A DNA stretch of 64,000 nucleotides from a bacterium (lineage in GTDB: Bacteria; UBP6; UBA1177), in the NCBI GenBank assembly GCA_016290135.1, contig JAEESW010000006.1, positions 27,670-91,669 on the forward strand, in the 5' to 3' direction. Under the pieces are notes generated by a model that did not search any database, was not told the origin of the DNA, and saw only the letters and a list, made by a program, of their open reading frames with translations. The translations under genes and the position numbers were made by a program. Below are positions 941 to 33,957 of this stretch, one piece after another; positions within the stretch are counted from its first letter, which is position 1; every line of letters begins with the position of its first letter.

Positions 941-1999
941 TTATTCGCCCCAGACAAAGATGTCGTCGAACCAAACTTTTTTCTGTTTTTTGTCCGCCAC
1001 AAGACAGAGATTCGGAATAGAGATCGAACCAAAATCGTGGACCTGATTATTGACTTTAAGTTCGTCATCGACCCATACGGAAACAGTTTTATTCAGCTGA
1101 TCGAGTTTCAAACGGATCTTATACCACACATTCGCCTCGTATGAAGGAGCGATCTCGTAAGCATACCATTCAGGGATCTGATAGCGTATCTTTCCGTCGG
1201 CGAACTCGACTTTCATGTCATAGTTGCCCCAATTCGAACCGCTTGCCTCATTTTCAAAAGTGCAGAGCGAAAATGAAACATCGTCACCTTCAGTATTCAT
1301 CTTCATTTCGACATTGATCACATCCGGCACTTCAGGCAGAGCTGTCGTCATGATCGCCGAAAGGTTGCCGTTCTTGCTGCCAAGAAGGTTCATGCTGTTT
1401 TCAGCAGAGAAATAGCGCTCGGAAGTAACGATCTGATACTGAGGTCCTGCGCCTCGGTATTTCAGCGTCCAGCCTGAACTTTTAGGCGGAAAAGAGCCGG
1501 CCGTGTAAGAATCAAAATTCTCCTTGAAGAAAGCGTTTCTGCACACTTTCGCACCGCCGCAGGCATCAGCCGTAACACAAAGATCGGCTTCGCAGCAGTC
1601 GGCATCGGTCTCACACGATGCCCTGAAACAGTTCGATCCGCTGAAAAGCTCGCCGCATACAGGCTTCTCTTCATCCGGCGTCTCATCGACATCCTCGTCA
1701 GGGAAAGGATCTTTATCGTTTTCGGCCGGATCATCTTCATTCGGTCCGTTATCGGCCGGTTCCGTGTTTTCCTCATCAGTTGTCACGACCTGGTCATTAT
1801 CATTGACTGCCGGTCCTCCGGCTTCATCCGGAGTTTCTTCCGCCGGTCCGACAGGATCTGAATCCTGAACCTCAGGATCATCGTTTTCAGTCACGCCCTC
1901 ATCCGGAGTCTCTTCAGCAACCGGAGTAAGCCGTTTCGCAGCATCACCGCTGCATGAAACAAGAATGAAAGCCAAAAATAAAAAGAAGAATTTCCGCAT
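941..1999 (-). CDS. secreted lipoprotein with an acidic low-complexity region, a Cys-rich module and a C-terminal beta-sandwich-like domain
   Basis: The probable start is MRKFFFLFLAFILVSCSG, which has an LVSC lipobox. An acidic Asp/Glu/Pro-rich linker follows, then CGELFSGSNCFRASCETDADCCEADLC, then a ~200-aa domain. This gene has no WRLP/RCVR tail. Confidence 0.6.
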   Translation of the reverse strand: MRKFFFLFLAFILVSCSGDAAKRLTPVAEETPDEGVTENDDPEVQDSDPVGPAEETPDEAGGPAVNDNDQVVTTDEENTEPADNGPNEDDPAENDKDPFPDEDVDETPDEEKPVCGELFSGSNCFRASCETDADCCEADLCVTADACGGAKVCRNAFFKENFDSYTAGSFPPKSSGWTLKYRGAGPQYQIVTSERYFSAENSMNLLGSKNGNLSAIMTTALPEVPDVINVEMKMNTEGDDVSFSLCTFENEASGSNWGNYDMKVEFADGKIRYQIPEWYAYEIAPSYEANVWYKIRLKLDQLNKTVSVWVDDELKVNNQVHDFGSISIPNLCLVADKKQKKVWFDDIFVWGE

Positions 2000-2099
2000 T
2001 TTTATTCTCCATAAAAGACACAAAACAACCTTTCTATTGTAGATCTTTCAGAAATATTATCAACCGATTTTTTTTAGACCGGCGTCGTTTTATTTGAAA

Positions 2100-2831
2100 T
2101 TATTGATTTTTCGGATCGAAAGCGAACGGGAAAGTGACTGTTGCGGAACCGCCTGCCGGTTTCGGGAAACGCAATCTGCCGATGACGCCTTTCACACACT
2201 TTGCGACTTCGGCATCTTTGAGAGAATCATCGACTACTTCGGTGTTTGAGACCCTTCCCTGCTCGTTTATCGTGATCTTTACAGACATTTTGCCTTTAAG
2301 CATCGGATTCGATGTCAGAGCCTTGTCGTAGCATCTTTTTATTGCGGCTTTGCTGACGTTTATAACTTTCGTGACCCCTGCGGAATCTATGTTTGCGCCG
2401 TCCGGCTCTCTCAGAGACGGTGTCGGCCTTTCAGGAACACCCTTTTCTTCCCTTTCTATCGGTTTCTTTTCCGCGGGTGCAGCCGCCGGAGCCGGTTTTT
2501 CAGCAGGTTTTTCCGTCTTTTCAGCTTTCTCTGCTTTTTCAGGAGCGGGTCTTGCCTCCTGTTTCTCTTTTTTTGCAGGTGCAGGAGCGGGAGCGGGTTC
2601 AGCTTTCTGCTCGGGAGCAGCCTCTTCCTTTACTGCTTCAGCAGGAGCGGGCTCTTCGGCTTTGGGAGCCTCTTCAACTGCCGGTGCAGGCTCAGCAACA
2701 GGTGCCGGTGCCGGCTGAGACGTTTCAGGTAACGGCTCTACATTTTCACTGCCACGGCTTCTGCTGCATTTGTAGGCTGCAAGCAGGGCGACTATCACAA
2801 CGATAATGACAACAACAAGAAGTTTTTTCAT
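2100..2831 (-). CDS. TonB-like protein: N-terminal TM anchor, Pro/Ala/Glu/Lys-rich linker, C-terminal TonB_C / AgmX-PglI C-terminal-like domain
   Basis: MKKLLVVVIIVVIVALLAAY is a TM anchor. About 120 aa of (A/E/K)P-rich repeats follow. The C-terminus reads AIKRCYDKAL...GKMSVKITINEQGRVSN...CVKGVIGRLRFPKPAGGSATVTFPFAF, which matches the CY..L / G.v.v.f.I...G.V / C / FP.P.GG / FPF.F pattern I recall for NF033768. Confidence 0.6.
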   Translation of the reverse strand: MKKLLVVVIIVVIVALLAAYKCSRSRGSENVEPLPETSQPAPAPVAEPAPAVEEAPKAEEPAPAEAVKEEAAPEQKAEPAPAPAPAKKEKQEARPAPEKAEKAEKTEKPAEKPAPAAAPAEKKPIEREEKGVPERPTPSLREPDGANIDSAGVTKVINVSKAAIKRCYDKALTSNPMLKGKMSVKITINEQGRVSNTEVVDDSLKDAEVAKCVKGVIGRLRFPKPAGGSATVTFPFAFDPKNQ

Positions 2832-2939
2832 TTTTCACCTCGTTAATAAAAAGACCTTAATCCAAAAAACGCGTTATTTTAGGAATATCTTGTGAAATTG
2901 CCAGAAAAATCGTCAGCTCCGGCAGAAAAGCGGTCGTTT

Positions 2940-3908
2940 TCACCTTCTCAGGTGGAGCAGTATCGAATGGGCCAAAGAGACCTTCTTACCGTGCTTCGGA
3001 GCAGGGAATTTCATCTCTCTCACTCCTGCCGCGATACAGTTTTCGACCGTAAGATTGCCGAAAGTGCTCATATAGACACCGGAATACAAGACCTTGCCTT
3101 CAGGAGAGACAATATATTCGACAGTCACCCTTCCGTGTTTCATATCGCTGTCTTCCTGCATTCCTTTGTAAATGCAGAAAGAAAAATCCTTCATCTTATC
3201 GTCGAACTGTTTGTTTATATCCTTTTCGCTGATAGGAAAGTTATCCTCTTTGTCAGCTTTCTTCTCTTTTTCATCCTTTTTTTCATCCTTATCAGCTTCC
3301 TTTTCATCTTCTTCAAAATAATACCAGTCCGACCTCGCAATGCATCTCGCGTAGAGTTTTGATTCCTTGCTGACACTTCCGATCATTCCGCTGTAAAAAA
3401 CGGCGCCCCAAGCCTTGTTATCATCATCGGAAAGCGATGATCCCGACCACAGTCCGATGTAATCCGCATCGCCGAACATGCTGTAATGACCTCTGTTTTT
3501 CGGCTTTCTTTCGCAAGTACACGAATTTTTAGGAGCCGAGCAGTTCCCGGCAAGGCATCTGCCCTCATCGCTCACGCGGCAGCTTCCGCCAGGCTCGGTC
3601 GCCGGACAGTTGCGCATCAGTTCCCTAAGCTCGTCGACATTCGGCAGACGCCATGTTTCGCCCCAGAAATCGAGTTTTCTGCAGTAATCCTGAGCTTCTT
3701 TCCATGTCATTTTAGTTAAAGAGCGTGCCGAGAAAATAAAGTTCCCGTCACTCTCGACGATCTCGATCCCTCCTTCCGCCGCGGAATAAGCCTGTGCCGC
3801 AGCTGCTTCCTCATCTTCGAGTTCGTTGTCCTTTTTATCCTCTGCAAAAAGGGCAACTATGCCGAAAACTGCGATAAAAAGAAACAAAGGCAAACTTTTT
3901 CTCATCAT
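2940..3908 (-). CDS. secreted protein fusing a Fib_succ_major-like domain to an AgmX/PglI-C (TonB_C-like) domain
   Basis: Signal peptide MMRKSLPLFLFIAVFGIVALFA. The first domain reads MTWKEAQDYCRKLDFWGETWRLPNVDELRELMRNC...LYARCIAR. A KEADKDEKKDEKEKK linker follows, then ...VTVEYIVSPEGKV...ENCIAAGVREMKFPAPKHG. The start ATG overlaps the murJ stop (ATGA). Confidence 0.7.
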   Translation of the reverse strand: MMRKSLPLFLFIAVFGIVALFAEDKKDNELEDEEAAAAQAYSAAEGGIEIVESDGNFIFSARSLTKMTWKEAQDYCRKLDFWGETWRLPNVDELRELMRNCPATEPGGSCRVSDEGRCLAGNCSAPKNSCTCERKPKNRGHYSMFGDADYIGLWSGSSLSDDDNKAWGAVFYSGMIGSVSKESKLYARCIARSDWYYFEEDEKEADKDEKKDEKEKKADKEDNFPISEKDINKQFDDKMKDFSFCIYKGMQEDSDMKHGRVTVEYIVSPEGKVLYSGVYMSTFGNLTVENCIAAGVREMKFPAPKHGKKVSLAHSILLHLRR

Positions 3909-5488: not shown

Positions 5489-5508
5489 AAAGGATCGCCT
5501 CTGCACAT

Positions 5509-6450
5509 TCACTCTTCCACCTTCTTAAACACAAAAGGATAGTTCACGATAACTATTCCGCCCCCTTTAGGAGCAGGAAATTTGATTTTTTTGATTACTC
5601 CGGCAACGCAGTTTTCGACTTCGGCATTGCCCATCGTCGTTCTCTGCACTTTGGCAGAACTCACATCGCCGCTTGCCGAAATAACGAAGTTGATGACGAC
5701 TCTTCCGGCTAATTTCCTATCTTTCGCAAGTTCATTTTCATAACATTGTCTTATTTTACCGACACTTTTTCTGACATACGAATCGATCGTGCATCTGTTT
5801 AAAGCACCCATTATTACCGGAGTCTCATGGGAAACGGATTCTTCTTTTAAATCCACTTCCTTAACGCATCTCGCATAAAATTTTCCGCTTTTTTTGTTGC
5901 TGCCGACCATTGCGCTGTAATAAACGATGCCCCACGCACTGTCCGGATTGTCGGAAAGAGTTGATGAAGACCAGAGAGCGATATTGTCTTCATCGCAGTT
6001 GGCACTGTAAAAACTCCCTTTTGCGATCCTCTCGCAGCTGCACGAACCTTTCGGGTTTTTGCACTCGGAAGAAAGACAACCGTTTTTCTCGCTCACTCTG
6101 CACTCGCCGCCGGACTCGGTTTTCGAACATCCGATTATCCCTTTTCTCAATTCGTCGATATTCGGAAGATGCCAGCCGCCCGAACCTTTTTCCGACAGAT
6201 TTTTGCAGTAGTTCACAGCATCGTTCCAAGTCATCTTTTCTGGAGAACGGTCGGAAAACAAAACAGTCTTTCTACTCCCACTTGCAGTACTTTCTTCATT
6301 TTCAAGTTCATTGTCTTGTTCCGGTGCCGATCCATTCTGCGTCCGGTTTGTATCTTCCGACGCGTTTTTCTCAGTTTTCCCGTCATCAGCAAAGAGTAGT
6401 ACCGTCAAAAAAGCTGAAATCAAAAGGACTAAAAACAAAAGTTTTTTCAT
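5509..6450 (-). CDS. secreted protein fusing a Fib_succ_major domain to an AgmX/PglI-C (TonB_C-like) domain
   Basis: The probable start is MKKLLFLVLLISAFLTVLLFADDG. It contains ...MTWNDAVNYCKNLSEKGSGGWHLPNIDELRK...KFYARCVKE. The C-terminus reads IRQCYENELAKDRKLAGRVVINFVISASGDVSSAKV...ENCVAGVIKKIKFPAPKGGGIVIVNYPFVF. The TGA stop overlaps the GTG start of the murJ ORF. Confidence 0.7.
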   Translation of the reverse strand: MKKLLFLVLLISAFLTVLLFADDGKTEKNASEDTNRTQNGSAPEQDNELENEESTASGSRKTVLFSDRSPEKMTWNDAVNYCKNLSEKGSGGWHLPNIDELRKGIIGCSKTESGGECRVSEKNGCLSSECKNPKGSCSCERIAKGSFYSANCDEDNIALWSSSTLSDNPDSAWGIVYYSAMVGSNKKSGKFYARCVKEVDLKEESVSHETPVIMGALNRCTIDSYVRKSVGKIRQCYENELAKDRKLAGRVVINFVISASGDVSSAKVQRTTMGNAEVENCVAGVIKKIKFPAPKGGGIVIVNYPFVFKKVEE

Positions 6451-6592
6451 GGTTTCACTCCGTAAGCGCAAAAACACGGAAAAAAATAGAGAAAATGAAA
6501 ACAGAAAGCAAGAAATCCATTGATAAGCCACAAGTCGGACAAAAAATGCAGACTCCGCAAAAATAATTCGAGTCGAAGTGTAAAAAGCACTG

Positions 6593-6620
6593 TTGACATC
6601 TCAATTTTATGGGATAATAT
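6593..6620 (+). promoter_or_regulatory. sigma-70-like promoter TTGACA-N16-TAATAT upstream of the AAA ATPase gene
   Basis: The motifs were read from the sequence. They are followed by a direct repeat TGCGGATTATCC / TGCGGATAATGG and then GGAGGTG-N5-ATG. Confidence 0.35.
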
Positions 6621-6670
6621 AAGACGTGACTGCGGATTATCCCAAATTTTGCGGATAATGGAGGTGAAAA

Positions 6671-7912
6671 ATGGCTTTTTTTGAACGGCATGCGGAAAAG
6701 ACTTTAACACGGCTCGAATCTTCATTTCCGGCAGTTCTCGTAACAGGTGCGAGACAGACGGGAAAAACCACACTTTTAAAGAAAATGACCGATGCGAAAT
6801 CGGTAAGAAGCACCACTTTTGACGACATTGCGGAAGAGCGGTCGGCAAAAACTGATCCGAAAACCTTTCTCGAACTCCATCCGAGTCCGTATATGTTTGA
6901 TGAAGTCCAGTATGTACCCGATTTTTTCCGTTATCTTAAAATCGAAATCGACAAAAACCGTAAAAACGGCATGTTTTATCTCACCGGAAGCCAGCAGTTC
7001 AAACTGATGGAAGCAGCAACCGAAAGCCTTTCTGGAAGGATCGGGATCGTCCAGCTTTATCCGCTTTCGGCGAGAGAGATCCGCCGCGACGGTTTTTCCG
7101 ACAACTTTATTCCGACAAAAGAGTATATTCTGGAACGGAACAACGCCCTTTCAAACCGCACTTTTTCTACCCAGAAAATCTGGGAGCGCATCTATACCGG
7201 CGGTTATCCCGAAGTCGTAAAAGGAAATGTTGATCCGAAAGATTTTTACGCATCATACCTTAAAACCTACATAGAGCGCGACATCAGAAGCCTGACTCAG
7301 GTCGCCGACGAAATGCAGTTTTTGCAGTTCATAACGATAGCGGCATCGAGAACGGGCCAGCTTCTGAACTACACTGACATGGCACAGGAATGCGGGATCA
7401 GCGAGGGAACTGCAAAAAAATGGATGTCGCTGCTTACGACTTCTGGAATCGTCTATCTCCTGAAGCCATATTCGACAAAAGTTGAAAAGCGGGTCGTAAA
7501 AACTCCGAAACTTTACTTCATGGATACCGGACTTGCCGCGTATCTCACCAAGTGGACAAGCCCGCTCGTCATGCAGACAGGTGCGATGGCGGGAGCTTTT
7601 TTTGAAACCTACATTGTGAGTGAAATAATCAAATCGTTTGCCAACAACGGCGTTGAAGCTCCGATTTATTTTTACCGCGACAAAGACAAAATCGAAATCG
7701 ACCTCATCATCGAACAGAACAGCATAATTTATCCCGTTGAAATCAAAAAGACCGCAACGCCTAATTCCGACGACGCGAAAAACTTTTTTATAACAGGCCG
7801 CCTGAAAGATGTTCAGATCGGTCAGTCTACAGTCATCTGCTGCACGGACAAAGTCGTTTCCGTCAAAAAAGGTGAAGCATCAGCTTTAGCAATTCCTGCT
7901 GATTTTGTGTGA
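6671..7912 (+). CDS. AAA-family ATPase (DUF4143 / COG1373-type ATP-binding protein)
   Basis: The ORF is 413 aa with a Walker A motif VLVTGARQTGKTTLLKKM. It shows the typical AAA_14 + DUF4143 layout (...YFYRDKDKIEIDLIIE...). It is the only plus-strand gene inside the minus-strand lipoprotein array. Confidence 0.8.
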   Translation: MAFFERHAEKTLTRLESSFPAVLVTGARQTGKTTLLKKMTDAKSVRSTTFDDIAEERSAKTDPKTFLELHPSPYMFDEVQYVPDFFRYLKIEIDKNRKNGMFYLTGSQQFKLMEAATESLSGRIGIVQLYPLSAREIRRDGFSDNFIPTKEYILERNNALSNRTFSTQKIWERIYTGGYPEVVKGNVDPKDFYASYLKTYIERDIRSLTQVADEMQFLQFITIAASRTGQLLNYTDMAQECGISEGTAKKWMSLLTTSGIVYLLKPYSTKVEKRVVKTPKLYFMDTGLAAYLTKWTSPLVMQTGAMAGAFFETYIVSEIIKSFANNGVEAPIYFYRDKDKIEIDLIIEQNSIIYPVEIKKTATPNSDDAKNFFITGRLKDVQIGQSTVICCTDKVVSVKKGEASALAIPADFV

Positions 7913-7960
7913 GTTATCCGGCAGTTAAGCAAATTTTGTAGTTTTGTTAAAGTATCGAAT
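7913..7960. repeat. degenerate copy (A) of the intergenic repeat element (GTTATCCGGCAGTTAAGCAAATTTTGTAGTTTTGTT...)
   Basis: It shares the GTTATCCGGCAGTTAA head and the ATTTTGT(A/G)(G/A)TTTTGT core with copies B and C. It lies immediately 3' of the AAA ATPase gene. Confidence 0.4.
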
Positions 7961-8077
7961 CCAATTGTTTTTCAATATCCCGACCATAGTACATAACGCG
8001 GATAATCGTCACGATTTTTCGTCTTTTTATCGGATTTTTTCGAAAAAATTTAGGAAGTGCAAATATCGATTAACACA

Positions 8078-9322: not shown

Positions 9323-9332
9323 TGGTTCACCC

Positions 9333-10058
9333 CTATTCCAAATTCAGCCTGTGTTTCAGTATAAAGTATGTCGCAACGCCGTAAATTGCGGAAAAAGCCA
9401 ACAAAATTAACGACATAGCACGAGCGTCGTGATATTTAACTATTTTGACGACACTGTCAAATACATCTGCCGAAATCCTGAAAGTCGCGCTCAGAATCAT
9501 AACGACCGTAACAACCATCGCGATCTTTCTATGTTTTTTTGCAAGATGCCCCACCGCATTCACAAGGTATGCAAACAAAACGACAGTTATGAAAATTGAT
9601 GCGAGCAGCAGCCAGTTCTCAAACTCATAGTCATATTTTTTTGCTATACCGGCAATAATCATAGACAAAAATCCACACACCAGACAGACAGGGATCCATG
9701 CAACAACCGATAAAATCCGTCCCCAGAGATGTTCACCGACCGTAACCGGAAGCATAAGGTTAAGGTAAGCTTCATCTCCCAGAAGACCTGTTTTGAAACG
9801 CCGGATAAAAACAGCTGCGGAAACAACTCCGGAAGTAACCAGAATCACAGAGTAAAGTATCATAAAAATCCCGGATATGCTGTCAAAAGCACTGTCCAGT
9901 CCCTCAAATCCGTCTAAAAAAAACATCCGGCAGATCAATGCTACAAAAACAGTGGTGACATAGATCGGCAGAAGGATACGCGCCGTATTTTTCATTTCAT
10001 ATTTGAATACCTTCAAAATCCAGGGGAAAGGATTCCTGACCGACTTTGTTTTTTCCAT
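9333..10058 (-). CDS. polytopic membrane protein, probably the permease partner of the adjacent ABC ATPase
   Basis: The ORF is 241 aa with about 6 hydrophobic segments. It sits 11 nt downstream of the ABC ATP-binding gene. Confidence 0.55.
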   Translation of the reverse strand: MEKTKSVRNPFPWILKVFKYEMKNTARILLPIYVTTVFVALICRMFFLDGFEGLDSAFDSISGIFMILYSVILVTSGVVSAAVFIRRFKTGLLGDEAYLNLMLPVTVGEHLWGRILSVVAWIPVCLVCGFLSMIIAGIAKKYDYEFENWLLLASIFITVVLFAYLVNAVGHLAKKHRKIAMVVTVVMILSATFRISADVFDSVVKIVKYHDARAMSLILLAFSAIYGVATYFILKHRLNLE

Positions 10059-10069
10059 AGAAATCCTCC

Positions 10070-10777: not shown

Positions 10778-10861
10778 CTATCTTCCTCCAAGCAATTTTT
10801 TCATGATTTCACCCTTCAAGCAACAATGATTTTAGCAATATAATATGCATCGTTCTTGATG

Positions 10862-11338: not shown

Positions 11339-11366
11339 TTCACCACCTCGCATAGAAAGAATACTC

Positions 11367-11527: not shown

Positions 11528-11528
11528 A

Positions 11529-11562: not shown

Positions 11563-11596
11563 ATGTTTGAAGTGTCTGTCTGCCTACACGACCTAC

Positions 11597-22707: not shown

Positions 22708-22742
22708 TTCTCCAATTTATCCCTCGCACATCAATTTATTTC

Positions 22743-24359: not shown

Positions 24360-24414
24360 GACATTTCCTTAGTAGTTCAATTTATAAAATTTTTCTCTTT
24401 TTGTAGCATTTTTT

Positions 24415-25041: not shown

Positions 25042-25133
25042 TTTAAATTCCTCCCGTAATTATTGATTAAGTAATTGATTTGATATCGGTTAAAAAAATT
25101 TGATTGAATAATTTGCCTCACTCTCAATTTCCC

Positions 25134-26432: not shown

Positions 26433-26570
26433 TTAACGCCTATCCTAAAAACAACAAGCCTTAAATAAAAAACTTCCGCCGCCTTTGACAGCGGCGGAAA
26501 AACCAAGAAATGGGAAATAATTCATTTTTTCCAACATAAAAAAACTGATAATTGCAGTTTTCTTCTACTT

Positions 26571-26918
26571 TTACTCAGTTTCTTTTTTGTCATCATCATT
26601 TTTTTTCAAGTCTATAGTGACATAAATAAAATCTCCGGCAACTGTTGTTACATCAACATGATTGGTTTGGTAACCCGCTTTTTTAGCGTAAACAGAATAA
26701 CTTCGAACTTTTATATTTTGAAGTTCAAAATTACCGTTGGAATCCGTATTAGTAGTTGTACTGTTCGGAGTTGTGAAGACATATACATCACTAAGCGGTT
26801 CACGAGAATCTAAATCCTTAACCATCCCTGCAATACTTGATAAATGGTCAGAATTAACTGCAGGCTCGCATGCAACAAAAAAAGATAAGATTGTAAGACA
26901 AAAAATAAGTTTTTTCAT
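26571..26918 (-). CDS. small lipoprotein with a carboxypeptidase-regulatory-like domain
   Basis: FFVACEP is a lipobox. It contains IAGMVKDLDSREPLSDVYVF...SNGNFELQNIKVRSYSVYAKKAGY. Confidence 0.6.
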   Translation of the reverse strand: MKKLIFCLTILSFFVACEPAVNSDHLSSIAGMVKDLDSREPLSDVYVFTTPNSTTTNTDSNGNFELQNIKVRSYSVYAKKAGYQTNHVDVTTVAGDFIYVTIDLKKNDDDKKETE

Positions 26919-26929
26919 AGTCGAAACCT

Positions 26930-27787
26930 CTAAAAATTAAGATTCATAGCTAAACCGACTGAATTGAATGTGGCTGTTGGAGCAAAAACAATTTTTCTAC
27001 CGTTTCCGTCAAACAAAGCAGATTTCCCGGGCGCCACTATACCATCAATAATGTTTGCGATATACAATGCCGCCGCAGCTCCTACGAAAGCCCAGCCTGC
27101 ATAACCGGCAGAATTCGCCCGCCTTTCAAAAGCATCTCTTTTGTCTAACTTTAGTGATTTGTCATTACTTCTACTTTTGTAATAGGAACTCATGCCAAAA
27201 GATGCAGCAAGTCCGCCAATAAAAAGAATCTCGCCGGCAATAAACAAAGCTCCTTTCACATTCTGATCTTTGTAAATCTGTGCCATCCCCGGAACAAAAA
27301 CCCTGCCAGAAAAAGGATACTGATCAGAATCATACACCTCGTCATACTCTATTTTTGCAGGTTTTTTAGAGATTTGAACTAAGAGATACACAACATATTC
27401 ATATGTAGGTCCTTCGCGCGGTATATCTATCACTCTTCTTATTATTACTTTACGCAAAGGAGGGTTCCAAGCCACATGTCTGTTTACAGTTTCATTACAA
27501 GTCAGTTTGTCGCCTCCATAAAGACATTCCTTGCTATTATGCTCGACTGCAGCTTGCTCTCTCTTATTATAGGCATTCTTTTCTGCAGCTTGAATATCCC
27601 AACCACAACCTTCGACCTTGGTTATAAATGATTTGGATTCAGGTGGGTCCCAAATAAATCCTTTAGTCCATTCAGGAAGAATCCCTCCTTCTTCACAGCC
27701 TTCTATACATTCAAATTCAACTGCAGAAAGACTCGCCGTAAAACAGAAAAAACAAAGAAGAAGTAATACTTCTAAGTAAAATTTCAT
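26930..27787 (-). CDS. secreted protein with a C-terminal Gly/Ala-rich hydrophobic (glycine-zipper-like) region
   Basis: Signal peptide MKFYLEVLLLLCFFCFTASLSA. The C-terminus reads GALFIAGEILFIGGLAASFG...GYAGWAFVGAAAALYIANI. Confidence 0.5.
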   Translation of the reverse strand: MKFYLEVLLLLCFFCFTASLSAVEFECIEGCEEGGILPEWTKGFIWDPPESKSFITKVEGCGWDIQAAEKNAYNKREQAAVEHNSKECLYGGDKLTCNETVNRHVAWNPPLRKVIIRRVIDIPREGPTYEYVVYLLVQISKKPAKIEYDEVYDSDQYPFSGRVFVPGMAQIYKDQNVKGALFIAGEILFIGGLAASFGMSSYYKSRSNDKSLKLDKRDAFERRANSAGYAGWAFVGAAAALYIANIIDGIVAPGKSALFDGNGRKIVFAPTATFNSVGLAMNLNF

Positions 27788-27790
27788 ATT

Positions 27791-28462
27791 CTACTCTTTA
27801 ACCGGCTCTACATGTTCTTCATTATATTGTGCTTGTTTTTCCGCACTTTCTGTTTGATAGTCTTGCAATTTTTTATCAATTAATTTATTAAATTGATCTT
27901 CTTGGAAATCTAATTTTCTTTTTTCTTCTTCAGTAAGCATATTGGGAGTTGCTTTCTTTAATTCACTTGCAATTTTCTGTCTGGAAATTTTAATACCTAC
28001 ATATACACGGTATCTTCCATTATCATCTTCGAATTCGTCTGTTTGCTGACAATTTTCTTTTGTATCGTCCAAGATTTTCTTTATTATATGATCATATCCA
28101 TCTTGTAATTTGGCTGCAATATCCGTTCCTCGAACCGAAGTATAATTATTTTCATATTCTCGAGCCAATCCTTGAACAGCATGCTGTGCTTTTTGAGCAC
28201 ATTTACTTTGTGCCTGTATAAGAGCTTGTCTCAAAGCCTGCCCTTCCGTAGATTCGGTTGCTTGAACAATTCCGTTGCAAGCAAAAAAATCGGTATCAGC
28301 ATCAGGTGTAAAACAAACTGTACCTATGGTTGCTCCACGTACACGTTTTTTCTCTTTAGCAGGCTGCCCATCTGCTGATCCAGAAGAAGCCATTTGCTGC
28401 GACGCACACGCCATAATAAAAGCAACCAAAACCATCATTGATACAAACAAGAATTTTTTCAT
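27791..28462 (-). CDS. lipoprotein of the second paralogous family
   Basis: FIMACAS is a lipobox. It contains CFTPDADTDFFACNGIVQATESTEGQALRQALIQAQSKC...RYRVYVGIKISRQKIASELKK. Confidence 0.65.
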   Translation of the reverse strand: MKKFLFVSMMVLVAFIMACASQQMASSGSADGQPAKEKKRVRGATIGTVCFTPDADTDFFACNGIVQATESTEGQALRQALIQAQSKCAQKAQHAVQGLAREYENNYTSVRGTDIAAKLQDGYDHIIKKILDDTKENCQQTDEFEDDNGRYRVYVGIKISRQKIASELKKATPNMLTEEEKRKLDFQEDQFNKLIDKKLQDYQTESAEKQAQYNEEHVEPVKE

Positions 28463-28500
28463 TTTTCTCTCCTTTAAAAAAAAATAATAATAAAAAGTCC

Positions 28501-29025
28501 TTATTGGACAACCTTATCTTCATCTGTTTTATCAGTTTGTTCTGTGTTATCAGTTTCAGATGTTTCTTTCTCACTTTCTTTATTTTCTTCCAAATCCTTG
28601 CGGTCTACACATACAAGAACATAAACTGAAAATCTGCCATTTTTATCGACATACTGATCTTGACGCACACCTTTCTCTTTTGTTGCAGGAAGAGAACAAC
28701 TGAAACTATTTCCTGTAGCTATTAGTCTACAAAGCTGCGATCGCGCATTCATTGTTGCCATTATGACAGCATCTCCTTCTGTATATGGAGTTGTTTTAAC
28801 TATGCCTACCGCACATATTTCCTCATCAGAAGATTCGCTTTTGATCCACTCTGTGATCCAGTCGGATTCATTGTTACCTTCATTTGGTTCGCCGGATTCA
28901 CTTGCTTTTGCTTCTTCAGATTTAGAAACAGCATCACCGTCACTTTTCTTATCAGCGCTGCCACACGCCGCAACCATCAAAACTACTGCAAAAATCAAAA
29001 TTGTTGAGCAAACAAATTTTTTCAT
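28501..29025 (-). CDS. lipoprotein of the second paralogous family (short form)
   Basis: VLMVAACGS is a lipobox. It contains EEICAVGIVKTTPYTEGDAVIMATMNARSQLC...GRFSVYVLVCVDRKDLEE. Confidence 0.6.
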   Translation of the reverse strand: MKKFVCSTILIFAVVLMVAACGSADKKSDGDAVSKSEEAKASESGEPNEGNNESDWITEWIKSESSDEEICAVGIVKTTPYTEGDAVIMATMNARSQLCRLIATGNSFSCSLPATKEKGVRQDQYVDKNGRFSVYVLVCVDRKDLEENKESEKETSETDNTEQTDKTDEDKVVQ

Positions 29026-29106
29026 ATCAGCACCTAATAAAAATCATCAAATAGTTTCAAGACATTGATTTGAGAAAGTTGTAATTTAAGATTTAAATCT
29101 TTTTAA

Positions 29107-29409
29107 TTACTCACACTTCAATTCGAATCTATAGGTACCAGGGTTCGGAAGATTACGAAGAACTCTTTCTGCTGTTTTCCTGGCACTGCAACTCAAAGGA
29201 ACAGCATCAACCATCTGACCAGAGACATAATCATAAACCTCTACAGTAGCTCTTCCCGATGAATTTCCGCATATAATTGAAACTCTAACAATGTTCTCGC
29301 CGCCTGTCGATATAGCTCTCTGAGTTGAACTTCCAAGCAATCGTGGACATTCGGCAAAAATCATTGACAAACTGAAAAACACCAAAACAAAAACCAAAAA
29401 CTTTTTCAT
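29107..29409 (-). CDS. small secreted protein
   Basis: Signal peptide MKKFLVFVLVFFSLSMIFA. It is about 100 aa and contains three Cys. Confidence 0.45.
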   Translation of the reverse strand: MKKFLVFVLVFFSLSMIFAECPRLLGSSTQRAISTGGENIVRVSIICGNSSGRATVEVYDYVSGQMVDAVPLSCSARKTAERVLRNLPNPGTYRFELKCE

Positions 29410-29705
29410 CTTTCCCTCCATGGAAAAATTAATTAATAAACCGACCATAACTTTTGCTATAGTCATCTAAAAATTCAACAAGCCAAAATGTTGGGCATAC
29501 CCAACAATAAAAACATCGCTTTAAACCAAAAATGTCGGATAAAGTCAACAAAAAAAACGGGCATTTTTCAAAATATTTGCGAATCACCTTAAAATACTAT
29601 GAATTGTAGAAATAAAAGATCCGCCAACCTAAAAAAGCAGGCGGATAACTTCGCTATCGCTGTGCGAAACTATGGTGAATCATGACAGTAAACCGGCTAT
29701 TCCTT

Positions 29706-31025
29706 TTATTCTTCAGATTCTTTTTTATACTCTTTCAACTTTTCTTCCATTCTTTTTATGAATTCATGTTCATCGAATTCAATTCTCTCTTTCTCATCAA
29801 AGCTGACTTCATTCTTTTTATTTTCACCAAGGATCTTTTCAATTTCACCAAGCATTTTTTCGGCAACTTCTCTCCTTGAAATTTGTATTCCGGCATAAGC
29901 TTCAATCATTCCGTCTGCCATGATCCCGGAATATTTCACACATTTAGCCTGAGCATTGTTAGTTACTGTTTCAATAACGCTGATACCTGCATGGCGGATC
30001 TTGTCTATAATCTTAACCTCCTTCTTGTTGTCAGCTCTCACAAAACCAAAATCTCTTAACATCCATGCTATTCCAATCCATCTATAAGCAGATCTTACTT
30101 TCCACTGCACAAGTTGCTTAGCATCGTAAAGCGCAGATTCCTGAAGTTTTCCTTTCTCATCCATATTTCCTTTAGCAATTCCTGTGGCTGTAAAATAGTC
30201 ATCGTCATCATACATCTGACACGGAAGTTCCCATGACTCGCCTAAAGCTTGACGGGACTCCGACATACATGCCGAAAGAACTTTCTGCTCATTTTTGGTG
30301 TCTCTCGGATTTTCTTTCCGCACTTTGTCTAAATTTTCTTTTTCAACTTGTTTTTCTTCTTTAAACTTTTCAAATTTTTCTTTAACTGCCTTATTAAATG
30401 CTTCTTCGACAAAAGCAATTGATTCTTTTTTTTCAGTCTCTTTTGATTCCATATATTTCTGCATTTTTTCTTCGTATTCAGCTGCTTTAAAATCAATTTG
30501 AGCTTTTTCTTCTTCACTAAGTTCTTCACTCAGGTTTTTTATGTATTCTTGTGGAATTTGTTCTCTTTTTTCAATTGTAAACACCAGTTCATTTACCATT
30601 TTTTCCGCCAGTTCTCTTTTGGAAATTTTTATTCCGACATATACTTCTATTTTTCCCTCTTCCATGGCACCGGAATACTTTACACATTTGGCTTGTGCAT
30701 TATTAACTACTGTGTCGATAATCCCGTTACCATCCACCTGTTCCAAATCCCAATATTCATGCTTTACATTTTGGCGACAGATATCCTGAGCATTGGCAAG
30801 TGCCGTTTTCTGAAGTTCTATTTTCTGTTCCATACTTCCTTTAGCAATTCCAACAGCTGCAAAATACTCATCGTCATCATACATCTGACATGGAAGTTCC
30901 CAAGATTCGTTGAAGAGAACCGCCTGCCCTATAGGTTTGCTTCCGGCAGATTTCTGCTGTTCCGATGCACATGCCGTAACAAAGAAAACAAAAAACATCA
31001 TTAATATAAACATAAGTTTTTTCAT
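29706..31025 (-). CDS. second-family lipoprotein with an internal duplication of the family domain
   Basis: FFVTACAS is a lipobox. The first copy reads ESWELPCQMYDDDEYFAAVGIAKGSMEQK...AQAKCVKYSGAMEEGKIEVYVGIKISKRELAEKM. The second reads ESWELPCQMYDDDDYFTATGIAKGNMDEK...NNAQAKCVKYSGIMADGMIEAYAGIQISRREVAEKM. Confidence 0.65.
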   Translation of the reverse strand: MKKLMFILMMFFVFFVTACASEQQKSAGSKPIGQAVLFNESWELPCQMYDDDEYFAAVGIAKGSMEQKIELQKTALANAQDICRQNVKHEYWDLEQVDGNGIIDTVVNNAQAKCVKYSGAMEEGKIEVYVGIKISKRELAEKMVNELVFTIEKREQIPQEYIKNLSEELSEEEKAQIDFKAAEYEEKMQKYMESKETEKKESIAFVEEAFNKAVKEKFEKFKEEKQVEKENLDKVRKENPRDTKNEQKVLSACMSESRQALGESWELPCQMYDDDDYFTATGIAKGNMDEKGKLQESALYDAKQLVQWKVRSAYRWIGIAWMLRDFGFVRADNKKEVKIIDKIRHAGISVIETVTNNAQAKCVKYSGIMADGMIEAYAGIQISRREVAEKMLGEIEKILGENKKNEVSFDEKERIEFDEHEFIKRMEEKLKEYKKESEE

Positions 31026-31223
31026 TCTTTCCTCCTTAAAACCATTTTATCTCACACAACTAACATTATAATCATAATCTCCAGCCAACTCTTTTTTCGC
31101 GGAATTATCCATTGAACATATCGATTGAAAATAGACACTATTTTCGCCGTTTTCATCTCTTTTTAACTGTTGAAATAATTGAGTTTTTCATTTTTTATTT
31201 TTCCTATTCCAACTTATTTTTCC

Positions 31224-31976
31224 TTAATTTGCAATCCTTACACAACGGACAGATAAATTTTCTTTCTTATGTTCACTGAAATAGCTACCATTTGAGAAAA
31301 TTATTTTCCATGCATAGAATGTATCATGGGCCATAGAGGACCAAAACTTTCCAGTGTCTCCGAACTTGCTTGAACCATTTCCGATAAGACTCTTAAGCAA
31401 ATTCAAACTTGGAAGTTGCCAATCAGAGAAACCACCTTGATTAAGATTCCTACAATAGTCGATAGCTGCCATCCAAGTCATATCCATAGGGGCCTGCTGA
31501 GACCACATATAACCTGTCGTCGAGTCTATGCAAGGGAATTTCCTAGGTGTATTATCGCAACTTCCTTTCTTTTCTGCTTCGGCTTTTTCGCGTTCGGCGC
31601 GTTCCTGCTCGGCTTTTATTTTGGTTTCAATTTCGCGTATAGCTACTTTTGCCTCAAATGCACATACTCCATGCGGATAGCTTTCAAGATAGATTTTCCA
31701 GACATCGGGACTGTTTTTTTGTCTTGCCATTGCACATGCATTAACATCCTGAGGATTGTTCTTTTCCATCTCACTGGGTGTTTCCTGTTTGTTCGTTTTC
31801 ATAAAAGATTCAGCTTCAACAGCGCATGATCCATCGGGATAAATTTCTAAATAGTTTTTCCATACATCAACTGTACCGACTTTTCTTGCAAATTTGCATG
31901 CCATTTCATCTGAACTTTCTGCAAAAAGCAGTGACGAAACAAAAATCAATGTGAAAGCACTAAATAACTTTTTCAT
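31224..31976 (-). CDS. secreted Fib_succ_major-domain protein with two tandem N-terminal two-Cys motifs
   Basis: It contains EMACKFARKVGTVDVWKNYLEIYPDGSCAVEAESF and DVNACAMARQKNSPDVWKIYLESYPHGVCAFEAKVA. The C-terminus reads SDWQLPSLNLLKSLI...LSVRCVR. Confidence 0.7.
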   Translation of the reverse strand: MKKLFSAFTLIFVSSLLFAESSDEMACKFARKVGTVDVWKNYLEIYPDGSCAVEAESFMKTNKQETPSEMEKNNPQDVNACAMARQKNSPDVWKIYLESYPHGVCAFEAKVAIREIETKIKAEQERAEREKAEAEKKGSCDNTPRKFPCIDSTTGYMWSQQAPMDMTWMAAIDYCRNLNQGGFSDWQLPSLNLLKSLIGNGSSKFGDTGKFWSSMAHDTFYAWKIIFSNGSYFSEHKKENLSVRCVRIAN

Positions 31977-31979
31977 TTT

Positions 31980-32867
31980 TTATTCCTCCGTTTTTTCAGG
32001 CACTTTTTTTTCGTCGTTTTCTTTCTCTTGTTCTTTTTTATAATCTTCTAACTTTTTTTCTAACATCCTTAGAAATTCATCTTCCCTCCAAAGGAGTTGG
32101 TTTTTCTCTTCGTCAGTCAGAGTGTTAGGATCTTCCTTTTTTTCTTCGGGTGCTTTTTTATCATTGCATTCCATTTCCTTTTTTTCTTCGGGTCGTTCTT
32201 CCAAGATGAAAAATTTCATAAAATCTTCTCTTTTCACCCCATATTTTTCTTCAATTTTTTTAATTAATTCCTCTCCTTTTTCTTCCTGCTGTTTCCAAAT
32301 CCAGTGATTCAAGATTATGGATAATTCTTCAATAAAATTCTTGTTCTTATCATTATTTATATTATAATTCAGATCATTAAGAACTTGTTCGATTTCTCTC
32401 AAAAATTTTAGATATTTATCCAACTCTTCCAAGTTTATGGAATAAAGTTCAGAAATATAAACAAAGTATTCCTTTCTAACTTTTCCGCCTTTAATATCAA
32501 CAACAGACGGCAGTTCAGCTATTTTGGTAAAAACTTCTTCCATTAAACTTCTCGCTTTTTTAAAAGCTTCATCTATCCTGGGATCCGATAATGATTCAGT
32601 AAAGTCATTGTTTAAGATTCCATTGAAGATTACCTCTATTTCAGGATTAGATTCTATTAAATTGATAAGATATTCAAGATCTTTCTCTGACACTTGTTTA
32701 TCTTTTTCGGAAAGTTCAACACTCTTATCAGCAGTCGTCTGTTCCTGCGTTACCAGTTCACTTTTCTCAACGACAGCACCTTCATTTTTTGCCGGAACAC
32801 TTCCGCACGCAACCGTCACCACAGCGACAGCCAAAACCAAAATGGTTAAAATAATTGAGTTTTTCAT
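31980..32867 (-). CDS. Glu/Lys-rich lipoprotein, hypothetical
   Basis: The probable start is MKNSIILTILVLAVAVVTVACGS, which has a lipobox. The remainder is highly charged with E/K repeats. Confidence 0.5.
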   Translation of the reverse strand: MKNSIILTILVLAVAVVTVACGSVPAKNEGAVVEKSELVTQEQTTADKSVELSEKDKQVSEKDLEYLINLIESNPEIEVIFNGILNNDFTESLSDPRIDEAFKKARSLMEEVFTKIAELPSVVDIKGGKVRKEYFVYISELYSINLEELDKYLKFLREIEQVLNDLNYNINNDKNKNFIEELSIILNHWIWKQQEEKGEELIKKIEEKYGVKREDFMKFFILEERPEEKKEMECNDKKAPEEKKEDPNTLTDEEKNQLLWREDEFLRMLEKKLEDYKKEQEKENDEKKVPEKTEE

Positions 32868-32915
32868 TTTATCCTCCTTAAACTTCAGATTCATCAAAAA
32901 CATATTGAAGTATTC

Positions 32916-33446
32916 TTAATTTTCCCTGACACAAACGACGCTTGTGTAATAACCTTTCTGTATAGCAAGAAGGCTGCCATATTCGTCGAATCCCACACCC
33001 CAAAGGAATCCCCTATCATCAGAAACTGGCGATTTTGAAATAATAGTTGTTACATATTCACTCGGAAAATAAAGTTTGGAATGTTCCTGCGGATTATTTC
33101 CTTCACAAGCATGACAGTATTTTCTCTTATAATCTCTGATATATGAAAGATTGCTGTTGGCTTCCGACACTCTGCATTCGCCACCAAGTTCTGTTCCGAG
33201 GCAATTTTTAACAATGCTTCTGAGTTCATCAATTGTCGGCAGTCTCCAGCCACCGTGTCCTCCGTATTGCTTACTGTTTAATTCGGAACAATACTGAGAA
33301 GCCTTACCTGCATCGTATTCTCTTTCACTTATCGGAGACCATTGAAGCCTTGCGATTTTTTCAAGTGTAACCTGCGACAGCGGAACTGCAGCACAGCCAC
33401 ATAAAACAGCGAACGATAAAACAAATAGAAAAGAATAAATCTTTTT
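32916..33446 (-). CDS. lipoprotein with a Fib_succ_major-like domain
   Basis: The start is MKKIYSFLFVLSFAVLCGCAA. It contains GGWRLPTIDELRSIVKNC...ECRVSE...VVCVREN. Confidence 0.7.
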   Translation of the reverse strand, partial: KKIYSFLFVLSFAVLCGCAAVPLSQVTLEKIARLQWSPISEREYDAGKASQYCSELNSKQYGGHGGWRLPTIDELRSIVKNCLGTELGGECRVSEANSNLSYIRDYKRKYCHACEGNNPQEHSKLYFPSEYVTTIISKSPVSDDRGFLWGVGFDEYGSLLAIQKGYYTSVVCVREN

Positions 33447-33480
33447 CATTGCATTTTCCACTCTATAAACACTATAACTT

Positions 33481-33957
33481 TTACCTCACGCACCTTATAT
33501 CGCCATAGCTTTTGATTTTATTGTTTTTCCCGTTTTCACCTTTAAAAAATCCGATACAAGATGCCGTATTTGAATCTTCTGATGAGGTCGATGACGACCA
33601 GAACCAGAATTCATCAGACCTGTCGATTCCGCAGATTTTCTGTATTTTATAAATTGTTTTGAGTTCTTCGATCGTGGGAATGTGCCAGTCAGTGAAGCCT
33701 CCCAATTTCAGATTTTTTGCGTATTCCATTGCATCATGCCAGTTCATCGGGGTTTCGGCACTTCCTTTTTGAATCATCCTGATCGTGCCCAACGGCGGCA
33801 CCACTTCAATATAGTCGCCTCGGTCGATAAAATTTCTTGAAACTTCCGAACTTGACTTATTTTCGGCTGCACCTTTTTTCCGTGCCAAGGTCTCCCTCCT
33901 TAAAAACAGCAGTTTCACTTCAATATCGAAACTGCAAAAGTCGCTTTCATATATCAT
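33481..33957 (-). CDS. Fib_succ_major/DUF1566-like domain protein with no recognisable signal peptide
   Basis: It contains ...PMNWHDAMEYAKNLKLGGFTDWHIPTIEELKTIYK...DIRCVR. The N-terminal 60 aa are hydrophilic. The true start is uncertain. Confidence 0.5.
   Translation of the reverse strand: MIYESDFCSFDIEVKLLFLRRETLARKKGAAENKSSSEVSRNFIDRGDYIEVVPPLGTIRMIQKGSAETPMNWHDAMEYAKNLKLGGFTDWHIPTIEELKTIYKIQKICGIDRSDEFWFWSSSTSSEDSNTASCIGFFKGENGKNNKIKSYGDIRCVR

Follow-up and report, generated by a model that had tools for sequence, protein, structure and literature searches.

What is the long, almost co-directional array of exported-protein genes that lies between recX and a helix-turn-helix (HTH) regulator gene in an uncultured bacterium (lineage UBP6; UBA1177), and how has it diversified? 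The array occupies positions 941 to 33,957 of a stretch of 64,000 nucleotides (hereafter the window; contig JAEESW010000006.1 of assembly GCA_016290135.1, positions 27,670 to 91,669). An initial annotation had described about 30 paralogous genes for secreted proteins or lipoproteins, at least 15 of them ending in a domain with the pattern WRLP...RCVR, and had proposed a diversifying surface-protein locus. Our answer is that positions 5493-34528 are an accessory island between pta and murJ and that the recurrent domain is Lcl_C (PF07603). With a probability that we put at about 0.6, the island encodes a repertoire, diversified by recombination, of adhesins or lectins that are anchored in the envelope and differ in specificity, together with a conserved backbone. 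Genes are referred to by their first coordinate; features are collected in Table 1.

Translation of open reading frames (ORFs) gave 32 credible minus-strand genes in 941-33957, a 33rd minus-strand ORF (6447-6848) being probably spurious. Between recX (504-938, plus strand) and the HTH gene the AAA_14/DUF4143 ATPase gene is the sole one on the plus strand, so that the uniform orientation noted earlier is borne out for every credible gene. The window is chromosomal, with recX, murJ, pta, aspartate aminotransferase, dnaE, mreBC, ribF, lepA and glmM present. A single family of about 30 paralogues did not emerge from all-versus-all BLAST and family scans. The genes fall into several families with paralogue identities of 25-60%, namely 14 Lcl_C genes, five Lpp20-like lipoproteins and two CarboxypepD_reg-only lipoproteins (17088 and 26571), beside the singletons 941, 22743, 24415, 26930, 29107 and 31980; the TonB-like gene 2100, murJ, an ABC ATPase with its permease, an HTH-nucleotidyltransferase and the AAA_14 ATPase are further members of the stretch. 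Export signals were judged by eye and with a simple hydrophobicity/lipobox script. By this measure a signal peptide, lipoprotein signal or N-terminal anchor is present in about 27 of the 32 genes, much as had been described, and 13 of the 14 Lcl_C genes have a signal peptide or lipobox; the description fails for Lcl_C gene 33481, which has no signal peptide. The many paired cysteines and the EGF domains likewise point to an oxidising compartment, that is, to export.

Lcl_C (PF07603, formerly DUF1566) was found in 14 proteins, with whole-protein scores of 46.9-159.1 bits against a gathering cutoff of 34.9. Since 18246-21590 holds two, the count is 15 copies in 14 genes instead of at least 15 genes, and a six-frame search with a hidden Markov model (HMM) of the window's 15 copies located no further ones elsewhere in the window. 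The alignment shows the pattern W(R/H)LP..(D/E)EL...WSSS...AW...F..G...RCVR as it had been described. The domain is C-terminal in 11 genes, for which the statement that the genes end in it stands; in 2940, 5509 and 8078 it is internal and is followed by an AgmX/PglI C-terminal (TonB_C-like) domain, the NF033768 scores of these three lying above the cutoff of 40 bits. Gene 941 was correctly said to have no WRLP...RCVR tail, no Lcl_C domain being found in it. The label TIGR02145 had to be given up: at E<=0.01 ten proteins had no match, and at E<=10 scores of 18.2, 14.2 and 22.4 bits were obtained, against a cutoff of 41.65 and spanning only some 50-60 of the 176 model positions. PF09603 (Fib_succ_major) gave one sub-threshold match (18.7 against 33.9 bits), in 31224-31976 at model positions 140-187. 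The fallback label DUF1566/PF07603, also offered at the time, fits all 14 genes. The PF07603 and Fib_succ_major families are relatives within the C-type-lectin superfamily, which the weak cross-matches fit. The family is very large: with a profile made from the ten long-form copies described below, representative clusters numbered 24,821 at E<=1e-3 and 8,065 at E<=1e-10, and up to 21 copies occur in one protein.

The modules that precede the domain had been listed earlier as shuffled among the genes, and family scans and all-versus-all BLAST support such shuffling. CarboxypepD_reg and EGF/EGF_CA modules score above the Pfam cutoffs, and the two-Cys motif of about 35 residues is real and was modelled as a helical hairpin; the supposed Ig-like regions yielded only sub-threshold matches to BACON_2 and Cep192_D6. 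Among the window paralogues, hairpin and head identities show no clear contrast.

The protein encoded by 17448-18218 was modelled with AlphaFold2 from 53 aligned homologues and the window paralogues, with a mean predicted local distance difference test (pLDDT) score of 90.9. Its structural neighbours comprise many C-type lectin domains, invasin, intimin and TvpA, a target of a diversity-generating retroelement (DGR), and Foldseek agrees. The closest solved structures are surface adhesin tips; by sequence alone PDB entry 8q4e, the adhesin Lcl, is a marginal match (E 0.078). By this model the Lcl_C heads are shown to have a C-type-lectin-like fold, as does the solved Lcl C-terminal domain. Two forms of the head were distinguished in the alignment. 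Ten copies are long-form heads with about 25-55 extra residues containing conserved cysteines (...NC..TE.GGEC.VSE..GCLS..C.....C.CE...), and five are short-form heads (both of 18246, plus those of 25134, 31224 and 33481); the cysteine pair of YC...RCVR is kept in 13 of the 15. In the model the long-form insert lies between helix 152-156 and strand 213-219. Canonical C-type lectins have at this position the long-loop region with the ligand site. Net charges of the heads range from -14 to +2, near neutral, so a polyanionic ligand of the glycosaminoglycan type, as for Lcl, is not indicated.

Neighbourhoods of relatives were chosen by MurJ homologues 85-90% identical to the window's MurJ, and in the close relatives among them (MurJ 88-90% identical) pta and murJ are separated by 12 bp to 1.5 kb. 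In L096 there are 12 nt between the pta stop and the murJ start, and blastn aligns its positions 8963-9993 with window positions 35561-34529 (93%) and 9997-12527 with 5492-2961 (84%). L098 and L099 have one unrelated 337-aa lipoprotein gene between pta and murJ, and L100 has one 425-aa TonB_C/Lcl_C/TonB_C gene. Relative to these genomes, window positions 5493-34528 are thus an insertion, and the segment is an accessory island between pta and murJ. Its GC content is 0.36-0.44, as against 0.47-0.50 in the flanks. The 57-nt direct repeats bracket only an AT-rich core of 23 kb (11527-34465); the 4.9 kb from there to gene 5509 lie outside them. The empty site of L100 has a single repeat copy (L100 8574-8611, 92% over 38 nt); L100 aligns with the window as far as 34476, a point within the pta-side repeat, and again from 6543 in the 5' region of 5509. 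In L097 a repeat copy lies between that genome's own shorter array and murJ (9769-9818, 88% over 50 nt). The 4.9 kb from the inner repeat to 6543 carry the nucleotidyltransferase, the ABC pair, 8078 and the ATPase. Gene 5509 is a partial duplicate of 8078 (78% identity over 262 aa), and as 8078 and 5509 are 78% and 84% identical to the single 425-aa gene of L100, both are, to judge from their sequences, derived from one gene of the L100 type.

Further searches were negative. Family scans detected no integrase or recombinase domain in the island ORFs. The window has no tRNA or Rfam match, so the repeat is not a known RNA or tRNA fragment. The 31-nt core of the repeat had no match in a metagenome collection, which evidently lacks the relevant contigs, as L086 contains the repeat. 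A scan of a genome collection for Pta showed no Lcl_C within 10 kb of pta in 80 loci with the window-derived HMM; this is uninformative, the best species representatives being only 61-72% identical, and the six closest Pta loci (L005-L010) have no synteny beyond pta.

Window positions 941-5512 are a conserved envelope cluster of murJ, one Lcl_C/TonB_C-like gene, a TonB-like gene and a lipoprotein gene. Orthologues of 2940 directly follow murJ in L096, L097 and L100 and stand one gene further downstream in L098 and L099. Gene 2100 is part of the conserved murJ neighbourhood and lies outside the island; it is 73% identical to its L098 orthologue and 30-33% identical to the tails of 5509 and 8078. 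Gene 941 belongs to the same neighbourhood, with a 65% identical orthologue in L098. The murJ ORF is overlapped by 4 nt on both sides, the stop of 5509 lying at its start and the start of 2940 at its stop. Independently of the island, the murJ-linked Lcl_C/TonB_C genes suggest an association with the cell envelope.

How the repertoire changes can be seen in a sister lineage. L087 was reached through a 67% identical orthologue of 17448 and L093 through a second homologue (60% identical); in both, a homologous array lies next to uppS instead of pta. The gene order is HTH regulator, signal-less Lcl_C gene, Lpp20-like genes, 284-aa protein, CarboxypepD_reg protein, 208-aa protein and 518-aa protein, followed by Lcl_C genes, and the backbone genes are 40-75% identical to their window counterparts; the backbone recurs partly in L097. 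The first 8.6 kb or so of L087 and L093 show 96-97% DNA identity, and 14 gene pairs were compared between the two genomes. Three pairs stand out: Lcl_C pair 373/375 (70% identical, synonymous divergence dS 0.69), Lcl_C pair 254/243 (79%, dS 0.33) and a 196-aa CarboxypepD_reg protein (84%). Nine of the 11 other pairs have 97-100% protein identity, with lipo154 at 87% and the 284-aa protein at 92%. In 254/243 residues 1-125 are 100% identical, after which the head is replaced; in 373/375 the first 150 residues or so are about 95% identical, after which linker and head are replaced. Insertions and deletions fall in the Cys-rich insert of the replaced heads. L093 carries one additional gene, of 594 aa, and the two genomes have different large multi-head genes (880 versus 1189 aa). 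The difference between L087 and L093 is thereby shown to be recombinational head replacement together with gene turnover.

Since the closest solved relatives are adhesive tips (PMC11162425, PMC10769870), an envelope-anchored binding repertoire is the most likely explanation of the island. It encodes a conserved exported backbone (Lpp20-like and CarboxypepD_reg lipoproteins and three proteins of no assigned family) and a changeable set of proteins, each built as an export signal or lipid anchor, a stalk and a C-terminal Lcl_C head. The stalks are two-Cys helical hairpins, CarboxypepD_reg with Ig-like regions, or EGF-like and other Cys-rich repeats, and the long-form insert takes the place of the ligand-binding long loop of canonical lectins. 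The repertoire would change as genes are duplicated and whole genes gained or lost, as modules are shuffled and as heads are replaced by recombination, with no part for a retroelement or phase variation. The Lcl_C proteins would be exposed at the surface and would bind ligands. Weak local matches to models of the adhesins Lcl, FimD, Lsa25 and LIC_10572 were also recorded.

Several points weigh against this explanation. Binding and surface location are predictions for these proteins, and the near-neutral heads give no support for a basic surface like that of Lcl. The TonB_C-like tails of three members and their translational coupling to murJ, as well as LpoB-like fusions and adjacency to the dcw cluster in other homologues, suggest a periplasmic location for at least some members. 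The window paralogues are old, at 25-60% identity, and no integrase was found among the island ORFs. Signal peptides were assigned by eye and script instead of SignalP or LipoP. The diverged heads of L087 and L093 have ratios of non-synonymous to synonymous divergence (dN/dS) of 0.36-0.44 with high dS, which indicates allele replacement and does not demonstrate positive selection. Head swapping is seen in the sister lineage and not in the window's own lineage: the window's strain is 99.65-100% identical and collinear in at least four assemblies or samples, without variation, and exact-protein look-ups of window genes returned only such contigs, none of them with an empty site.

An alternative of low but appreciable probability is that many or all of the Lcl_C proteins work on the envelope from within the periplasm, with glycan strands of peptidoglycan, lipid-linked precursors or partners in the outer membrane as their binding targets, and are not adhesins that face outwards. 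The fusions of Lcl_C to AgmX/PglI C-terminal domains in 2940, 5509 and 8078 speak for this, as do the 4-nt overlaps on either side of murJ and the conserved linkage of murJ and Lcl_C, adjacent in L096, L097 and L100 and one gene apart in L098 and L099. To these may be added the homologues P0017, P0020 and P0058, which have an N-terminal LpoB-like module (PF13036 recorded for P0058, the others read from the sequence), an LpoB gene adjoining an Lcl_C gene in L090, and, in L095, the placement of six Lcl_C genes just ahead of mraZ and the dcw cluster. Yet the 11 head-terminated genes have neither a TonB_C nor an LpoB module, and stalks of EGF, CarboxypepD_reg, Ig-like and long Cys-rich repeats are typical of extracellular proteins; the solved structures closest to the head are surface adhesin tips; an accessory, strain-variable repertoire suits an outside interface better than core envelope housekeeping, and the adjacency to murJ may merely reflect an insertion hot spot. 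For the TonB_C-fused, murJ-coupled members themselves the evidence suggests a periplasmic, envelope-directed role. As to L095, its six Lcl_C genes (3061-12299) form one co-directional run that adjoins mraZ-rsmH-ftsL-ftsI-murE on the upstream side, so tandem Lcl_C arrays near cell-wall genes recur.

Quite unlikely, in our estimation, is a mere recombination hot spot that collects unrelated exported-protein genes, which would then neither form a functional unit nor be selected as a repertoire. It would accommodate the varying cargo between pta and murJ in relatives (nothing, the unrelated 337-aa lipoprotein gene or one Lcl_C gene), the defence-candidate genes and ABC transporter that the island also carries, and the age and divergence of the paralogues. 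Against it stands the same ordered backbone at another site, beside uppS, in L087 and L093, and its partial recurrence in L097, which speaks for a co-inherited module rather than random accretion.

A programmed mechanism, by which a DGR diversifies the heads or silent cassettes, invertible promoters or slippage tracts bring about antigenic or phase variation, is highly improbable. DUF1566/Fib_succ_major heads make up 14% of the known DGR targets (PMC5758913), and one such target, TvpA, is structurally close to the 17448 model. No reverse transcriptase was detected, however, in the scanned ORFs (those of the array and most ORFs of at least 150 aa in the rest of the window), and the window has no template/variable repeat pair, its repeats being paralogue-level coding similarity of 60-83% identity. 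It also has no inverted repeats of at least 40 nt (shorter repeats of the invertase type were not searched), no long identical tract and no slippage-type tract, with six short tandem repeats of 2.0-2.6 copies each, two of them in the array proper. Every array gene is complete with its own start, so that none looks like a silent cassette. Within this scope the repeat and family searches exclude a DGR, phase variation and silent cassettes in the window. The proposal of a diversifying surface-protein locus therefore holds for evolutionary diversification, given the site that is empty in relatives and the head replacement in the sister lineage, and does not hold for a programmed mechanism. Least probable of all is that the genes belong to the FISUMP family (TIGR02145/PF09603) and share the role proposed for it, that of cellulose-binding or cohesin-like modules. 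FISUMP proteins, too, occur in large numbers outside the cytoplasm, often as lipoproteins (PMC4704652, PMC5758913), and the C-terminal 50 residues or so match both models weakly (14-22 and 18.7 bits). Yet these scores, far under the cutoffs and over only about 50-60 of 176-187 model positions, refute membership, PF07603 outscores the FISUMP models everywhere, and the host is not assignable to Fibrobacterota. LepA relatives from several named phyla are about 61-63% identical.

To return to the recombination-diversified repertoire, a bolder version of it, which we hold to be rather unlikely, is that the 23-kb core is a transposable display cassette. Lacking an integrase of its own and equipped with its own XRE regulator, it would mount interchangeable lectin heads on a lipoprotein chassis (Lpp20-like and CarboxypepD_reg proteins and the 285-, 208- and 538-aa unknowns), relocate between sites such as pta-murJ and uppS, and exchange heads by recombination. 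If true, it would be a retroelement-independent diversification of the very head fold that DGRs mutate.

The locus may be compared with known systems. The Lcl protein of Legionella pneumophila (PDB 8q4e, PF07603) has the Lcl_C domain and the C-type-lectin-like fold in common with the island proteins. Its C-terminal domain forms a C-type-lectin-like trimer that binds sulphated glycosaminoglycans (PMC11162425), so the initial annotation's remark that the function of the domain is not established is outdated. Lcl has collagen-like repeats, whereas no island translation contains Gly-X-Y repeats, and the Lcl equivalog model NF046116 (cutoff 500 bits) reaches at best 42.3 bits, a local match of gene 25134 to the C-terminal end of the model (positions 329-430). 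The Lcl head is basic and without disulfides (PMC11162425); the island heads are near neutral, ten with the Cys-rich insert and 13 of 15 with the YC...RCVR pair. The DUF1566 lipoproteins of Leptospira (Lsa25, LIC_10572), studied as adhesins, are likewise multi-copy exported proteins or lipoproteins with a C-terminal DUF1566 head; their NCBIfam models gave local matches of 16-33 bits here against equivalog cutoffs of 200-260, their stalk modules are others, and the genes studied here sit together in a single island. FISUMP proteins share the C-terminal ...WSS...VRCV core and form a large paralogous family of extracytoplasmic, often lipoprotein, Cys-containing members (PMC4704652, PMC5758913), with 17-119 copies per genome in nine of ten Fibrobacteres genomes surveyed and none in C. 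alkaliphilus (PMC4704652, PMC5758913). Their domain measures about 175-200 aa against about 90-145 aa here, and none of the scanned proteins attains the FISUMP cutoffs.

Bd2740 is a surface-displayed fibre tip of Bdellovibrio bacteriovorus (PMC10769870; PDB 8oks). The mosaic adhesive trimer (MAT) fibres that it tips are long and trimeric with other stalk types, whereas the stalks here are short hairpins, beta-sandwiches or Cys-rich repeats, many of the proteins are lipid-anchored and there is no sign of a predatory host. DUF1566 heads are known targets of DGRs (PMC5758913), but the DGR systems with CLec2/DUF1566 heads (Legionella LdtA, Treponema denticola TvpA) comprise a reverse transcriptase and a template repeat, neither of which was found in the ORFs and repeats scanned here, where variation comes from recombination and gene turnover. 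The AgmX/PglI-type domain of Myxococcus (NF033768; GltG/GltJ) is present in 2940, 5509 and 8078; the GltG and GltJ equivalog models NF033760 and NF033761 score at most 193.9 against 650 and 54 against 450 bits, locally over the C-terminal 100 positions or so, and fusion to Lcl_C and coupling to murJ occur here and are not features of the gliding-motility proteins GltG and GltJ. The locus is thus a PF07603 member, and neither a TIGR02145 member nor an Lcl equivalog nor a DGR target. The array represents no new type of system: the domain, its fold, its use at adhesin tips, expansions of DUF1566/FISUMP lipoproteins and chimeric adhesin repertoires with swapped tips are already known, and in metagenomes the family is huge. 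Its value is that of a clear natural example of an uncultured lineage expanding and reshuffling lectin-like heads in one accessory island, in which an empty site, boundary repeats and head replacement between near-identical genomes are visible together. Of interest are the island anatomy, the co-inherited uncharacterised lipoprotein backbone, the disulfide-rich long-form head and the murJ-linked TonB_C fusions, and the locus offers a starting point for work on the ligands of long-form heads, the role of the backbone in head display and the reason for the tie between Lcl_C/TonB_C genes and murJ.

Table 1. Features of the accessory island and its flanks, in window coordinates.
Position	Strand	Feature	Evidence or remark
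941..2023	-	Lipoprotein: acidic linker, Cys-rich module, unassigned domain of about 200 aa	No Pfam match, no Lcl_C
2100..2831	-	TonB-like protein: N-terminal anchor, Pro/Ala/Glu-rich linker, TonB_C-like end	Sub-threshold TonB_C match
2940..3908	-	Exported: long-form Lcl_C and AgmX/PglI C-terminal domain, outside island	PF07603 46.9 bits, NF033768 46.9 bits
3905..5512	-	murJ, lipid II flippase	TIGR01695 360.8 bits (cutoff 235.6); conserved right flank of island
5493..34528		Accessory segment, 29,036 bp, 13 of 14 Lcl_C genes	Absent between pta and murJ in L096
5509..6531	-	Exported: long-form Lcl_C and AgmX/PglI C-terminal domain	PF07603 51.5 bits, NF033768 101.6 bits
6671..7912	+	AAA_14/DUF4143 ATPase between the duplicated 5509 and 8078	PF13635 159, PF13173 97.6 bits; PADLOC PDC-S01 E 1e-106
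8078..9322	-	Lipoprotein: TonB_C-like, long-form Lcl_C, second TonB_C-like (AgmX/PglI) domain	PF07603 57.6 bits, NF033768 175.5 bits (2 stretches)
9333..11440	-	Cargo unrelated to array: ABC-2-like permease, ABC ATPase, HTH-nucleotidyltransferase	ABC_tran 82.9 bits; Polbeta/NTP_transf_2
11470..11526		57-nt direct repeat, inner copy (DR1)	Between terminator-like hairpin after 11597 and HTH-nucleotidyltransferase gene
11597..12292	-	Exported, one hairpin and long-form Lcl_C with longest insert	PF07603 72.5 bits
12293..13357	-	Lipoprotein: Cys-rich N-terminal half (36 Cys in whole protein) and long-form Lcl_C	PF07603 65.5 bits
13393..14028	-	Exported, one hairpin and long-form Lcl_C	PF07603 65 bits
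14035..14652	-	Exported, one hairpin and long-form Lcl_C	PF07603 58.6 bits
14676..16394	-	Lipoprotein: CarboxypepD_reg, Ig-like, Cys-rich repeats, long-form Lcl_C	PF13620 50.8, PF07603 68.9 bits
16396..17091	-	Lpp20-like family lipoprotein	32% identical to 27791 over 235 aa
17088..17447	-	Small CarboxypepD_reg-only lipoprotein	PF13620 49 bits
17448..18218	-	Exported, two two-Cys hairpins and long-form Lcl_C; protein modelled	
18246..21590	-	1114-aa lipoprotein: EGF/EGF_CA, about ten tandem four-Cys repeats of about 67 aa, two short-form Lcl_C	PF07603 159 bits (2 stretches); EGF 34.6, EGF_CA 34.1 bits
21601..22707	-	Lpp20-like lipoprotein, C-terminal membrane-like tail ending ...SFDF	BLAST, alignment
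22743..24359	-	Exported 538-aa protein, best-conserved island gene	75% aa identity to L087; 77-79% nt identity to L097
24415..25041	-	Lys/Glu/Pro-rich 208-aa backbone protein	60% identical to L087 orthologue
25134..26432	-	Lipoprotein: CarboxypepD_reg, Ig-like, short-form Lcl_C	PF13620 51.3, PF07603 59.5 bits
26571..26918	-	Small CarboxypepD_reg-only lipoprotein	PF13715 47 bits
26930..27787	-	Exported 285-aa backbone protein, two hydrophobic segments, ending ...NLNF	71% identical to L087 orthologue; no family match
27791..28462	-	Lpp20/Tip-alpha-like lipoprotein, reference of second family	
28501..29025	-	Short Lpp20-like family lipoprotein	BLAST, alignment; L087 orthologue 51% identical
29706..31025	-	Lipoprotein with two tandem Lpp20-like units	Internal 124-nt repeat, 81% identity
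31224..31976	-	Exported, two two-Cys helical hairpins and short-form Lcl_C	PF07603 62.6 bits
32916..33461	-	Lipoprotein consisting of long-form Lcl_C domain	PF07603 51.5 bits; lipobox LCGC
33481..33957	-	Short-form Lcl_C, no signal peptide, first gene next to HTH regulator	PF07603 60.7 bits
34161..34451	+	XRE-type HTH regulator, pta-side island edge	HTH_3 39.8 bits
34466..34522		57-nt direct repeat, pta-side copy (DR2)	55/57 identical to 11470-11526, sharp edges
34534..35529	-	pta, phosphate acetyltransferase	TIGR00651 414 bits; conserved left flank of island

Among the Lcl_C genes the largest is built from a repeat of about 67 aa (C...NAxWN...TQTW.G..W.P...C.F.C..Y.W...C), which occupies residues 137-810 or thereabouts of the 18246 product, occurs in one copy in 14676-16394 and matched no Pfam or NCBIfam family. 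In the DNA of 18246 it appears as a 600-nt super-repeat of 76-81% identity, which indicates recent internal duplication. Gene 33481 has a 66% identical, 136-aa orthologue at the same position in L087 and L093. A signal-less Lcl_C gene thus stands beside a divergent XRE regulator in three genomes (window 33481-33957, L087 1650-2060, L093 1321-1731); it is 97% identical between L087 and L093. Its product would be cytoplasmic, which is odd for a head that is otherwise exported. The XRE regulator itself has a 69% identical orthologue at the head of the L087 and L093 arrays, and a perfect sigma-70 consensus promoter (34113-34140; TTGACA, 16-nt spacer, TATAAT) lies just upstream of its gene. Within the cargo the HTH-nucleotidyltransferase (10862-11440) matches PADLOC candidate PDC-S09. 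In L097, just upstream of the Lcl_C array (positions 760-2033), a 45-aa ORF precedes the gene of a radical SAM/SPASM enzyme, and the two may act together in peptide maturation.

For the backbone, the model of 27791 reached a pLDDT of 71.6, its alignment containing only seven window sequences (six family copies and 31980-32903). With this model of moderate quality Foldseek returned Lpp20 (5ok8; probability 1.00, TM 0.58, E 0.02) and Tip-alpha (E 0.011). Pfam matches were absent for 27791, 16396, 21601, 28501 and 29706, for the first two even at E up to 5, and NCBIfam likewise gave no match to the family. The Lpp20-like genes are interleaved with the Lcl_C genes and kept in the sister-lineage arrays, and the model resembles both Lpp20 and Tip-alpha of H. 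pylori. Both 21601 and 26930 encode Gly/Ala-rich hydrophobic segments near the C-terminus and an aromatic last residue (...SLSFDF and ...AMNLNF), endings reminiscent of outer-membrane beta-signals. The product of 22743 has a Lys-rich coiled-coil N-terminus and a C-terminal ...DCEDRS...H...D motif; a transglutaminase-like assignment was considered, and as Transglut_core matched below threshold (12.5 bits, E 0.18) and no PDB sequence matched, no claim is made.

Outside the island, the nearest named relatives of MurJ are from Treponema and other Spirochaetaceae, at 41-46% identity. Beyond pta two tandem paralogues of about 1030 aa (36977-40066 and 40239-43340) have a DUF11-type repeat and a DNA identity of 73-77%; pairs related to them flank pta in L096 and L098, and one copy is present in L100. 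The partial Cys-rich lipoprotein noted earlier at the window end is confirmed as a truncated gene (63176-64000, the start lying near 63176; MMKKFSILFFAMLFCFVCSC...) with an acidic linker and EGF-like Cys-rich repeats, no Lcl_C being visible before the window ends. About 16 kb past the island a polysaccharide biosynthesis cluster (50980-60014; GC 0.40-0.45) comprises glycosyltransferases, a Wzy_C-type polymerase/ligase, a flippase and a Wzc-like chain-length determinant.

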